Positions 17,767 to 24,741 are shown, counted from the first letter of the stretch. The stretch: 64,000 nucleotides of DNA from an uncultured Gammaproteobacteria bacterium (GCA_945787155.1 CALZHD010000001.1:16817-80816), one strand, 5' to 3'. Notes: generated by a model not told the origin, from the sequence alone. Made by a program: numbers and translations.

Positions 17767-19884
17767 TTACTGCAGCAGTGACAACACTAACTGTGGCAAT
17801 GAATTTGCCTGTGACAGAATTGAAACACCTGCCTGTTGCAGAATTTGTGAACGTGTCAGTGCCGCAGTTTCTTCCGCATAGTCTGTATCTCGAATTCGTG
17901 AACGCGCAGCGCTCAGATTCTCAGAGGAAGCTGCCAGATTAGCAATGGTCGATTCAAAACGATTTTGAACCGCACCCAGATCACCTCGCAGCGTGTTAAT
18001 CTGATCCAGTGCACCATCCATCAGGGCAATTGCAGAGTTCGCACCCGCCACCGTGGAGATGTCCACTGCATCAATGCTGCTCAGAGTAGAACTTGCAGAT
18101 GCCAGGCCAGCCTTAGTTGCATTATTACCTGCAATGGTGAACTGGGTAGAGGAATCCAGCGCCAGCGTACCCTTAACATTAAAGGCTACTGCCGCACCCG
18201 CAGTACCTGCAGTGGCAGCAGCAGTCGATACACCCGCCACACCGGCACCACTCTCAGTCACAGCAAGATTGCTCACGCCCGTTCCCAAAAGATCTGAGGT
18301 CAGGGTGATTGCAGCAGCGCCACCAGTAGCTTGAACATTAGTTCTAGCACCAGCATATTCTGCATTAACCGCTGTCAGGAAGTTTTGTGCAATCCCGGCA
18401 TCAGTGATGGCAAGGCTAACGCCTACATTACCTGTAGTGGCACCGGTACCATCAGCAGTGAACTCATACACCCGACCACCGACCGTGAGTGTTTCGCCAA
18501 AGGCAATACCTGCACCAGCTGTCGCTGCATTATTAATCGCGTAACCTGCGGTGCCATTAGTGATATCGGTATGATTCACTGCTGTACTGGTAAACACATC
18601 TGAGGTTAAGGTCATAGCTGCAGCAGTACCGTCTGCTGTAACATTACTCGTAGCACCATTAATTACAGCAGCGGCCTTAGTAGAAACTCCAGCAGCGGTA
18701 TCAGCCGCCGCATAGGCAATCGCGGTATTACCCGCTGTCACACCGAGACCATCTAAATCCATTTCAAAGGTTGTGCCTTGTATAGAGAAAGTATCCCCAT
18801 CGGTAGTAGCGCCACCTGCTAAAAAGGTAATATTAGAGACGCCCGCTGCACCACCGGCAAAGGTCGTCACACCGGTCGATTGAGTCGCCGCCGCACTTCG
18901 CACCTCTAACGCCGTTGCATTCTCGATCCGATCCAGACCATCGACACCGTTACTAGAAGTAATCTCGATATTTTTACCCGTTGTTGAGGTCAGCGTCAAA
19001 GCACCGGTGGCCAAATCTGCGGTAGCACTCACGCCGCTTTGAGACGACACATTATTAATGGCAGTGGCAACATTGGCACCCTGTGTCGCAACATTATTGG
19101 AACCTGTTACAGAACCAATGTTGACTCCATTAACTAATAAATCACCTGACTGCAAGGTCTGGTTACGTAACAAGGTATTCGTAATCGAAGAGGAAGTCGT
19201 TGTCGTAGCTGATGCCTTGACACCCGTTGTGGTGGTTACGCTATTGATCGCAGCGGCGATACTCTCAGCAGAACCTGAGGTAGAAACACCCACGTCTGTC
19301 CCATTGATAGTAAGATCACCACCCGCCAGCGCTGTACCACTCACAGCTGTCGCAGTATTTCCTACCTGATAAGAACCCAGTGCCGATGTCTGCGCATTGC
19401 CCACATTCACCAGAATGGTCTGATTAGCGTTAGCGCCTACCTGGAATTGTGCGCCCGTGAATGAACCATCAATAATGTTCTGACCATTAAACTGAGTGGT
19501 CGTCGCAACACGTTGCAACTCTGAGAGCAACTGGCTCGCCTCACCCTGCAGCGCAGTACGATCAGAGGCCGAGTTGGTGGAGTTCGCAGACTGAATCGCC
19601 AGCTCGCGCACACGTTGCAGAATATTGCCATACTCGCCCATCGCACCTTCAGCAGTCTGCGCCAGAGAGATGGCATCATTGGCGTTACGAGACGCCTGAT
19701 TAAGACCACGGATCTGGGTGGTGAATCGTTCTGAAATCGCGAGTCCCGCAGCATCATCCTTGGCACTGTTAATGCGCAGACCAGATGAAAGACGCTGGAG
19801 AGATACACCTAATTGAGATTGGCTATTATTGAGGTTACGTTGAGAATTTAACGAGGCAACATTAGTGTTAATAATTTGTGGCAT
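17767..19884 (-). CDS. fliC: Flagellin FliC, unusually long (about 705 aa) with Thr/Ala/Gly/Ser-rich central variable domain
   Basis: Canonical flagellin N-terminus ([18 protein letters not shown]...) and C-terminus (...[26 protein letters not shown]...). The true start is probably the MPQII Met rather than ORF-track position 19920. Confidence 0.9.
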
Positions 19885-20038
19885 TTTTTGCTTCTCCTTA
19901 CGGCTCCGGCATACATACAAACGTACAGCCTGCTCTTATAGACAGAGTAAGTGCTGTACATCAGCCCAGCACCGGAACTAAAGGTTTATCTTTAGCGGAT
20001 ATACTTATCAAAAAAAGTATTTACCGCTCCCAGTGATG

Positions 20039-23200: not shown

Positions 23201-24741
23201 AGCACCCGGTCGCACATCTCACCGCAGAACTCTATGAGCTACATGATCGCGACAAGTTTGAGATTACGGCCATCGCATACGGCTCCAAAGATACAAGCCC
23301 AATGCGGCAACGTCTACTCAAGGCTTTTGACCATTTTTACGATGTCGATAACATGGACGATATTGAGATTGCTGAGCTGATTGCATCAAAAGGGATTCAT
23401 ATCATCGTAGACCTGTTAGGTCTTACCCGAGGAAATAGATCTGGTGTGCTTGCTCGCCGTCCTGCCCCGATTCAGATCAACTACCTCGGTTACGTCGGCA
23501 CAATGGGGAGCGACTACATGGACTATATAATAGTGGATGAATTCAGTGTGCCATCTGACCAACAACCATTTTTCGATGAACGCCTGGTACACCTTCCCTG
23601 TTACATGGTCATCGATACACAGCGTGAAATCGCCACTGAAATCCCAACACGCAGTGCATGTGGCCTACCAGAAGAGGGCTTTGTATTCTGTAGCTTTAAT
23701 AACACTTACAAAATAACACCTGAAATTTTCGACATCTGGATGCGTTGCCTCAATAATATTCCCAACAGTGTATTATGGCTACTCGGTGACAATGAATGGG
23801 CACAGGAAAATCTTCGTAACGAAGCTAAAAGTCGCGGCATCGACCCTGCCCGCCTGGTCTTTGCCGCTCGCACAGACTCTGCCAGCCATCTCGCACGCCA
23901 ACGTCTTGCAGATCTATTTCTCGACACGCTACCGGTCAATGCCGGCGCAACGGCAAGCGATGCATTATGGATGGGACTGCCGGTACTGACTTGCGCAGGA
24001 AAGAGCTTTATTGCGCGCATGGGTGGTGGACTGGTACATGCCGCAGGATTGCCTGAACTGGTCACAGAATCACTTGAGGCATATGAGTCACTGGCCATCA
24101 AGCTTGCACAGGAACCGCAGACACTCGCGGCATTGCGAGATAAATTGATTGCCAATCGGGACAGTGCGCCACTATTTAATAGCCGAGAATTTTGTCTCAA
24201 TTTCGAGGCGGCCCTCACCACTATGTGGAACCGCTGGCGTGAATCATTAGACAATAATACGGGCACGCCAACCAATACCCATGTAGTGAAAAGTATGCTT
24301 AAAGAGGCCATCGCATTGCATCGACAGGGGGATCTTGATGCTGCGGAACAACATTACAGGGCTATCCTGGACATTGACCCACAGGAAGCAGACGCGCTAC
24401 ATTTATTAGGTGCCGTTAATGCTCAACGCGGCAATATGGATGAAGCGGTTGCCCTCTATCACCAATCGATTGAGGCCAACCCCAGACTCTTTGGCGCCTA
24501 TAACAATCTAGGCATTGCCCTGTACAGTACTAATAAACACCAGGAGGCTGTTGAATGCTTTCGACAGGCAATCGCGATCATGCCAAATGTCGACGCCTAT
24601 TATAATCTCGGTAATTGCCTCTATGGCCTGCAGCAATACGAAGCAGCGGTATCAAATTACAAGCAAGCACTTATGCTCGATCCCAATCACGTCAATGCGC
24701 AACGCAATATGAATGCAAGCCTCAAGCAATTGAGTCGCTAG
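20293..24741 (+). CDS. Giant TPR-repeat protein with two tandem O-GlcNAc-transferase-like (GT41) catalytic modules; candidate flagellin glycosyltransferase
   Basis: 1482 aa. Polybasic N-tail, then TPR array + OGT-like catalytic domain ([64 protein letters not shown]), a second TPR array + second OGT-like domain with the same motifs, then a C-terminal TPR array. Divergent from fliC. Confidence 0.8.
21145..22230 (+). repeat. Copy 1 of the internally duplicated about 1.1-kb GT41 catalytic module within the TPR-GT gene
   Basis: The encoded segment (IGYISSDF...[22 protein letters not shown]) is roughly 60-65% identical by eye to the second module encoded at 23161..24240. Confidence 0.7.
23161..24240 (+). 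repeat. Copy 2 of the internally duplicated GT41 catalytic module
   Basis: Encodes VAYISADF...[22 protein letters not shown], paralogous to 21145..22230. Confidence 0.7.

Follow-up and report, generated by a model that had tools for sequence, protein, structure and literature searches.

A stretch of 64,000 nucleotides (nt) from an uncultured Gammaproteobacteria bacterium (GCA_945787155.1 CALZHD010000001.1:16817-80816; hereafter the window, with positions counted from its first letter) carries, divergent from the flagellin gene fliC, a gene for a 1482-amino-acid (aa) protein with two complete glycosyltransferase modules. Each module is an array of tetratricopeptide repeats (TPRs) followed by a catalytic domain of glycosyltransferase family 41 (GT41), the family that includes human O-GlcNAc transferase (OGT). 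From its architecture, its active-site residues and the conservation of its position, we consider that the gene probably encodes a soluble, cytoplasmic, modular flagellin O-glycosyltransferase resembling FlmG. The feature that we regard as most interesting is the setting of the gene, an island of GT41 modules only that is shuffled and variable in copy number among related loci.

Two TPR-GT41 modules and a closing TPR array

The gene (20293..24741, plus strand, as are all parts of it given below) opens with GTG, and ATG or GTG is also found at the aligned position in L001, L081 and L084, three of the related loci described below. Against the Pfam profile Glyco_transf_41 (PF13844) its product scores 578 bits (E = 1.7e-173, cutoff 25) over four stretches, which are the N-Cat and C-Cat halves of two modules, and many TPR matches accompany them. 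Membership of CAZy GT41 and PF13844 is thus supported across both halves of the domain, and a custom hidden Markov model (HMM) of the domain places the two catalytic units at aa 214-650 and aa 886-1323. An earlier reading of this DNA from the letters alone (the sequence-only reading) had described two complete modules closed by a third TPR array, and had expected two Glyco_transf_41 matches plus TPRs; Pfam, the HMM and the repeat register bear out this description, and the four motif pairs that it had set against human OGT are exactly those aligned by HMMER.

The chain runs in the order leader, TPR-A, GT41-A, linker, TPR-B, GT41-B, tail TPR. A basic, Ser/Pro-rich N-terminal leader (20293..20391, aa 1-33) precedes TPR array type A (20392..20931, aa 34-213), which has about 5.5 repeats with Asn-ladder positions and is the proposed acceptor binder of module 1. 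The first catalytic domain, of clade A (20932..22242, aa 214-650), has no intervening domain. A linker (22243..22308, aa 651-672) that is only 7-27% identical among orthologues leads to TPR array type B (22309..22947, aa 673-885, about 6.5 repeats), the proposed acceptor binder of module 2, and to the clade B catalytic domain (22948..24252, aa 886-1320), whose donor loop is letter-for-letter identical to that of module 1. About four repeats form the C-terminal tail TPR array (24292..24738, aa 1334-1482). The arrays keep a 34-residue register, with AYNNRG, THNNLG and AYFNLG in array A and N-L-G motifs in register, and in both modules a TPR array with an Asn ladder lies directly N-terminal to the catalytic domain, one of the features by which we judged GT41 membership.

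The two modules are 49% identical over 658 aa, with the catalytic domains at 60% and TPR arrays A and B at 34%. Conservation among orthologues follows the same division, being 52-74% for the catalytic domains and 28-69% for arrays A and B. Of the TPR parts, the tail is on the whole the best conserved (59-75% identity to that of the window among related loci), and several single-module genes of related islands also have an array of its type after their last catalytic domain. In an AlphaFold2 model of module 2 with the tail, built from a six-sequence alignment, the TPR helices are confident and the predicted local distance difference test score (pLDDT) is below 50 over most of the catalytic part.

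The leader recurs in its own right. The pattern M/V-A-G-K-K-x-R-K-Q-K, followed by a Ser/Pro-rich stretch, starts most independently translated GT41 genes of the islands, among them those at L081 12136 and 14262, L084 6123, L088 5677 and 8227, and L089 7843; at the internal start of module 2 it is mostly gone, with KIKSDKKG remaining as a trace. Possible roles of the leader are those of a pseudo-substrate or self-glycosylation loop, by analogy with the N-terminus of SPINDLY, and of a targeting peptide.

Catalytic residues are kept and the donor site is altered

Residues were assessed from HMMER alignments to human OGT and from an alignment of 272 related modules, with XcOGT equivalences taken from the numbering in PMC2556091 and PMC9715652. 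When one catalytic domain was searched against PDB sequences, human OGT scored about 281 bits (E = 1e-82), XcOGT 276 (E = 4e-81), TtOGT 165 and SPINDLY 155. The alignment to XcOGT is one unbroken stretch, and the window protein thus shares with XcOGT the lack of an intervening domain.

Both modules keep the equivalents of human His498, Tyr841-Lys842, His901, Arg904, Thr922 and Asp925 (H298, Y466, K467, H526, R529, T547 and D550 in module 1; H971, Y1139, K1140, H1199, R1202, T1220 and D1223 in module 2), which in human OGT position the donor phosphates and nucleoside. The His498 and Lys842 equivalents are invariant in both modules of seven orthologues, and among the 272 related modules the former is present in 269 and the latter in 271. 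Of the OGT catalytic His, Lys and Gln whose conservation the sequence-only reading had proposed to check, the first two are therefore in place in both modules, but the third, Gln839, is Asn.

The remaining changes are likewise shared by the two modules: Lys898 is Thr or Ser, Cys917 is Val, His920 is Gly and Thr921 is Ala. Mutagenesis of human OGT has shown that K842, Q839, K898 and D925 matter (PMC2556091), and residue 917 has been proposed as a donor-size gate across GT41 (PMC9715652). A donor site of the human UDP-GlcNAc type (Q839, K898, H920, T921 and a small residue at 917) is thus lacking, so that the name O-GlcNAc transferase is unwarranted, while the assignment to GT41 is unaffected. 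Gly at the His920 position is also found in 81 of the 272 related modules; it is a common state of the subfamily and therefore by itself no sign of a dead enzyme. Orthologous modules have V, I or Y at position 917 and G or H at position 920, which means that donor specificity cannot be read off these residues and may differ between strains.

A variable GT41 island beside fliC in related loci

Seven related loci (L001, L004, L081/L082, L083, L084, L088 and L089) share the divergent pairing of fliC with GT41. The closest catalytic domains are those of L084 (69-77% identity to the window by domain, 71% for protein P0047), where one in-frame TAA, shortly before the linker and close to the end of catalytic domain A, splits the two modules apart (L084 6123-10529). 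The next called start lies four codons past this TAA, and the gene may truly be split, or the stop may stem from a nonsense mutation or an error of assembly. One fused two-module gene is present in L001 (58%) and in L083 (46%). L088 (65%, P0062) has one 841-aa module and a 170-aa TPR open reading frame (ORF) before the contig ends, and L089 (46%) has a 682-aa single-module gene and a 1475-aa double one. L004 is a fragment (65% over the best segment), and its flank is fragmentary too. The largest island seen is that of L081 (8001-18745; L082 is identical), where five GT41 modules, in a 1323-aa double gene without the tail TPR and in single genes of 682, 772 and 719 aa, lie between fliC and ligA (59%, P0009). 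The islands thus hold between one module (L088, where the contig soon ends) and five.

The other flank is ligA in L081/L082, L083, L084 and L089. In L001 (15040-23910) ligA is replaced by a nucleotidyltransferase gene and a 2956-aa gene resembling Tc toxins (VRP1, ABC_toxin_N, Neuraminidase, TcA_TcB_BD). Despite this different flank, L001 keeps GT41 beside fliC. A metagenome search with the GT41 protein alone returned only three weak, irrelevant loci.

Of the marks of a flagellin glycosylation island, a glycosyltransferase gene adjacent to the flagellin gene and conserved in relatives is present, and genes for biosynthesis or modification of the donor sugar within the island are absent; among the called genes of the related islands, too, there are none for donor sugars.

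Fusion and shuffling of long-diverged modules

A neighbour-joining tree of catalytic domains separates two old clades. Clade A holds module 1 of the window, L084_g1, L081_g3, L081_g4 and the second modules of the group at 46% identity. Module 2 of the window falls in clade B, with L084_g2, L081_g2, L081_g1 (in both its modules) and, from the 46% group, the first modules. The order is A-B in the window and B-A in L083 and L089. Because the clades are old and the order is swapped in relatives, the protein is a fusion of two long-diverged paralogues. A recent tandem duplication, as the sequence-only reading had it, was rejected on these grounds; in relatives the modules are also found as separate genes and in shuffled form.

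Shuffling extends to the TPR arrays, of which there are three types, A, B and tail. Type-A TPR is joined to a clade-B catalytic domain in L081_g1.m1, L081_g2 and L089_g1, and in L001.m1 to a divergent catalytic domain whose scores against A and B are nearly equal.

Proteins with several modules are abundant in the family. The best 120 homologues comprise 74 with two modules, 41 with three and five with one. An exhaustive search with one catalytic domain gave 41,065 cluster representatives at E <= 0.001, and 143 of the best 150 show 2 to 6 matched stretches, in proteins of up to 3,855 aa. Since proteins with several modules rank higher in both lists, these figures speak for abundance, not frequency. 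Literature on GT41 or PF13844 with flagellin and on bacterial multi-domain OGTs yielded no description of this architecture. The claim that it is not described is nonetheless overstated, given that 115 of the 120 best homologues have two or three modules.

The flagellin

The gene fliC (17767..19884, minus strand) encodes the proposed acceptor, a protein of 705 aa that begins MPQIINTN; the ORF as listed (17767..19920) opens at an upstream TTG. The product matches Flagellin_N (1.3e-43) and Flagellin_C (6.1e-27) in Pfam and has the IN motif. Domains D0/D1 occupy aa 1-170 and 611-705, and between them lies a hypervariable, folded outer region (aa 171-610) that is 37-82% identical among the syntenic loci, compared with 79-94% for the termini. 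An AlphaFold2 model from 74 sequences has a mean pLDDT of 86, mostly above 90 in the central region, with an alpha/beta outer region; its best structural matches in the PDB are the flagellar filaments of P. aeruginosa, H. pylori and C. jejuni.

The description of this flagellin as giant does not hold, and its Ser+Thr content is not exceptional. At 705 aa it is shorter than the flagellins called giant in the literature, which exceed 1000 aa (PMC6248924). Its 120 best matches (54-86% identity) are all 693-821 aa long, all but one of them 728 aa or shorter, and flagellins of about 700 aa are named from Steroidobacteraceae, Candidatus Nitrotoga, Azonexus and Desulfurivibrionaceae. Ser and Thr make up 26.6% of the central region (aa 171-610), which is the family average (26.8 +/- 2.2%). 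A long, Ser/Thr-rich flagellin as a signature of this glycosyltransferase was rejected, the type being widespread, also in three lineages with no GT41 within 10 kb of fliC, and average in Ser+Thr.

Promoters and genomic surroundings

The pattern TAAA-N14-16-CCGATA is the core of the established sigma-28 consensus. It occurs twice in the 64 kb (0.22 expected), both times in the intergenic region between fliC and the GT41 gene. One sigma-28 (FliA)-like motif faces fliC (20040..20065, minus strand; TAAAGATTATCTATGATTTTCCGATA) and is conserved in L001, L004, L081, L083 and L084; the other faces the GT41 gene (20214..20239, plus strand; TAAACACTGAACAACATCGCCCGATA), about 53 nt before the GTG. As judged from these motifs, the GT41 gene is likely to be transcribed with fliC from back-to-back FliA-type promoters.

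Downstream of fliC follow, all on the minus strand and identified by Pfam, flaG (17267-17686), fliD (15133-17142), fliS (14627-15082) and fliT (14244-14606). The order fliC-flaG-fliD-fliS-fliT is kept in L001, L081, L083, L084 and L089, and in L088 as far as fliS, where the contig ends. Beyond fliT lie genes for a tPilZ protein and fleQ, fleS, fleR, fliF, fliG, fliH, fliI and fliK, which together constitute a polar-type flagellar cluster; the sequence-only reading was accurate in placing the gene divergent from a polar-type fliC with a product of about 705 aa. On the other side, the GT41 gene converges on ligA, followed by PilZ, dinB and lexA. The stops of the GT41 gene and ligA overlap by 4 nt (24738-24741), as they do by coordinates in L081, L083 and L089, which leaves no space for a terminator between them.

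We scanned all window ORFs of at least 150 aa and three shorter flagellar ORFs. None encodes sugar biosynthesis, Maf, pse, leg, neu or pilin functions, in agreement with the sequence-only reading as to pse and leg; because the window is only part of a genome, the lack of pse, leg and neu genes in 64 kb is weak evidence. The further suggestion that their absence implies a UDP-sugar donor does not follow. GT41 enzymes have been reported with UDP-GlcNAc, UDP-glucose or GDP-fucose (PMC9715652), and donor pathways need not be linked to the transferase.

The rest of the window holds housekeeping genes (purEK, carAB, dapB, dnaJK-grpE, hrcA, recN and others), and its DnaK is 91-92% identical to those of metagenome-assembled genomes labelled Gammaproteobacteria, Chromatiales or Thiotrichaceae. 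Candidate PilZ-type receptors of cyclic di-GMP bracket the fliC/GT41 block (tPilZ at 13561-14166, PilZ at 26838-27728), and a GGDEF-EAL protein is encoded at 62619-63986. A RoxA-like multi-haem cytochrome c (634 aa) adjoins a cytochrome P450 at 30028-33327, an unusual pair beside the SOS genes lexA and dinB. A 601-aa ORF (34282-36087) has no Pfam match, and the syntenic gene in L084 (611 aa) is annotated FimW_N + FimW_C. A 301-aa ORF (56399-57304) matches part of the 466-position profile of SelO, a protein adenylyltransferase, and may be truncated or fragmented. As listed, the ORFs of hrcA (50365-51414, minus strand) and NAD-kinase (51382-52494, plus strand) are divergent and overlap by 33 nt at their starts, so that one start has probably been called too far upstream.

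Comparison with known glycosylation systems

Like human OGT and XcOGT (PDB 3PE3, 2JLB/2VSN), the window protein has a TPR superhelix followed by GT41 N-Cat and C-Cat halves. It differs from both in having two full units and a C-terminal TPR array and in being encoded beside fliC, and from human OGT in the residues at Gln839, Lys898, Cys917, His920 and Thr921.

The nearest functional parallel is FlmG of Caulobacter and Brevundimonas, a soluble flagellin O-glycosyltransferase whose N-terminal TPRs bind flagellin and whose C-terminal GT-B domain sets the donor (PMC7591256; 10.1101/2022.03.25.485807). The order TPR then GT-B is repeated in each module of the window protein, GT41 being a GT-B family, and the shuffled TPR and catalytic combinations in its relatives fit the acceptor/donor logic of FlmG. 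This likeness is one of architecture. FlmG is a single 596-aa module and transfers pseudaminic or legionaminic acid, for which the window has no genes. In citing FlmG as a TPR protein with an OGT-like domain, the sequence-only reading was right about the TPRs, but the catalytic part has been described only as GT-B (PMC7591256). Its other example, GmaR of Listeria, does not apply. GmaR is not a GT41 enzyme, and consists of an N-terminal glycosyltransferase domain of about 180 aa followed by TPR, linker and antirepressor domains (PMC9638930), whereas the window protein has TPR then GT41, twice, with no antirepressor domain among the Pfam matches listed.

Several GT41 systems share part of the design. 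Synechococcus elongatus Ogt (Synpcc7942_0051) and Nostoc punctiforme OgtA combine TPRs with GT41 as the window protein does; the Synechococcus enzyme is cytoplasmic, is needed for glycosylation of PilA, requires its conserved catalytic Lys and has a locus number close to that of pilA (PMC9306852). These cyanobacterial enzymes differ in acting on a type IV pilin, in having a single catalytic unit and in their demonstrated donor, UDP-GlcNAc (PMC9306852). HMW1C and ApNGT are cytoplasmic GT41 enzymes that modify many sites on a secreted surface protein with housekeeping UDP-hexose and both start and extend the glycan (PMC3012730, PMC9715652), but they N-glycosylate Asn with a single catalytic unit and no TPR array. 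Enterobacterial flagellin-linked variable islands contain, as here, GT41 genes (COG3914, 'SPINDLY family'); that work is bioinformatic prediction only and provides an independent pointer to a link between GT41 and flagellin (PMC4875605). Most GT41 proteins of those islands carry methyltransferase domains, and sugar-biosynthesis genes are present, in contrast to the window island, which is TPR-GT41 only with two units fused.

The b-type island of P. aeruginosa (PA1088-PA1091) is linked to fliC in a FleQ-type polar system and encodes a large protein with two activities, PA1091 or FgtA; this is a GT2 enzyme with a fused phosphotransferase, and its island also encodes donor-modifying enzymes (PMC11833859). 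The idea that FgtA is itself a double GT41 enzyme was rejected on the same literature. Maf-type systems have a Maf domain protein near the flagellin genes, and none is encoded by the scanned ORFs of the window.

Proposed function and alternatives

Conservation of the fliC-GT41 pairing in seven related loci makes flagellin the most likely substrate. Each TPR array would capture flagellin in the cytoplasm before FliS binding and export, and a Ser or Thr of the captured protein would be fed into the adjoining GT41 site, which would transfer a sugar from a nucleotide-sugar whose synthesis is encoded elsewhere in the genome. The TPR arrays may choose the acceptor and the GT41 domains the donor, a division of labour proposed because of the FlmG domain-swap result (10.1101/2022.03.25.485807) and the binding of substrates in the TPR lumen of OGT and SPINDLY (PMC9715652). 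We infer these steps of capture, transfer and timing from OGT, SPINDLY and FlmG; in Maf and FlmG systems flagellin is modified in the cytoplasm before export (PMC4065374, PMC7591256). Given identical donor loops but TPR arrays that share only 34% identity, we would expect the modules to add one sugar, or two similar ones, at different places or steps. The modules could serve different sites, or could start a glycan and then lengthen it, as HMW1C of the same family does.

Being a variable array of cassettes, the island that separates fliC from ligA would equip the flagellar surface with glycans that differ between strains. In a bolder form of this proposal, which we offer tentatively and without great expectation that it holds, TPR readers (A, B and tail) and GT41 writers (clades A and B, variable at 917 and 920) would be combinatorial cassettes, shuffled, fused or split and present in one to five copies, that write strain-specific flagellin glycans from housekeeping nucleotide-sugars; the two centres of the window protein would then act in sequence on one captured flagellin.

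A number of observations weigh against flagellin as the substrate. Seen against more distant homologues, found by a genome-contig search with the orthologue alignment and used as a linkage control, the pairing is confined: none of the 78 distant TPR-GT41 loci among the matches listed has a flagellin gene within the flank (<=10 kb). These loci (33-46% identity) belong mostly to alpha- and betaproteobacteria, with Chlorobi, planctomycetes and others also represented, and the flagellar link is therefore lineage-specific and not a property of the family. The related loci themselves come from one lineage that also shares the order ligA, PilZ, dinB, lexA, so part of the synteny may be plain inheritance, and the host lineage is represented by metagenome assemblies only. 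The proposal of flagellin O-glycosylation in the sequence-only reading is partly supported. Conversely, the Nitrotoga, Azonexus and Desulfurivibrionaceae loci with long flagellins have no GT41 gene within 10 kb of fliC. Flagellin outer-domain similarity is not paralleled by the GT41 repertoire, so that flagellin and GT41 parts seem to have been exchanged independently. The outer region of FliC is modelled as well folded, with no long disordered Ser/Thr stretch, and OGT-type sites take extended peptides. The GT41-side promoter motif is conserved in L001 only, being diverged or absent in L004, L081, L083 and L084, no donor-sugar genes are found among the scanned ORFs, and both modules have Gly and Ala in place of His920 and Thr921.

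Some of these points would suit a general intracellular OGT-like enzyme with several cytoplasmic substrates, comparable to Yersinia pestis HmwC or eukaryotic OGT, whose adjacency to fliC is merely inherited order. Such an enzyme is what might be expected from a family of 41,065 cluster representatives, from the lack of an adjoining flagellin gene at 78 of 79 distant loci and from long flagellins of the same type without an adjacent GT41 gene, and bacterial GT41 enzymes with many substrates are known (PMC11329713). We nonetheless judge it unlikely, since the island stays with fliC in L001 though the other flank differs, since its one to five modules always lie between fliC and the next housekeeping gene, which fits surface-antigen islands better than a housekeeping regulator, and since a sigma-28-like motif faces the GT41 gene.

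Less probable still, at perhaps a slim chance, is that the target, alone or alongside FliC, is a different exported filament or flagellar protein, such as FliD, FlaG, a hook-associated protein or a pilin. Flagellin is the target in the flagellar glycosylation islands that have been characterised (PMC7591256, PMC11833859, PMC4875605), no other exported product of the block that bears Ser/Thr comes near FliC in abundance, and no pilin gene is present among the scanned ORFs. Set against this, flaG, fliD, fliS and fliT stay with fliC as one conserved block, the strongest experimental example of a TPR-GT41 enzyme that modifies an appendage subunit concerns pilin and not flagellin (PMC9306852), and with two unlike TPR arrays and a tail the protein could accommodate two acceptors.

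That the protein is mainly a non-catalytic TPR scaffold or regulator (a moonlighting protein like GmaR, a flagellin chaperone or an export-timing factor) with one or both GT41 domains inactive is very improbable, because, for all its three TPR arrays and conserved basic leader, its replacements at His920, Thr921 (phosphate loop), Gln839 and Lys898 in both modules and the little or no O-GlcNAc activity of XcOGT and TtOGT in vitro (PMC9715652), the catalytic domains are its best-conserved parts (52-74%, compared with 28-69% in TPR arrays A and B), the equivalents of Lys842 and His498 show no variation among seven orthologues and are near-universal in the 272 modules, and Gly for His920 is common (81 of 272).

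Implications

If the preferred reading of the gene as an FlmG-like flagellin O-glycosyltransferase is correct, GT41 would become a fourth class of enzyme for flagellin glycosylation, which is known to proceed via Maf, FlmG and GT2-type enzymes; a role for GT41 has so far been predicted only, for the enterobacterial islands. If the combinatorial cassette proposal also held, this would be without precedent both as a flagellin glycosylation pathway based on GT41 and as a functional multi-catalytic OGT. The protein would also offer a way into the role of multi-catalytic GT41 proteins, which make up at least about 140 of the 150 best cluster representatives and among which we found no characterised example in the literature. 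With no dedicated sugar pathway, it would provide a simple model for the choice of acceptor by TPRs and of donor by GT41, and the fused, split and shuffled modules in related loci form a natural domain-swap series.

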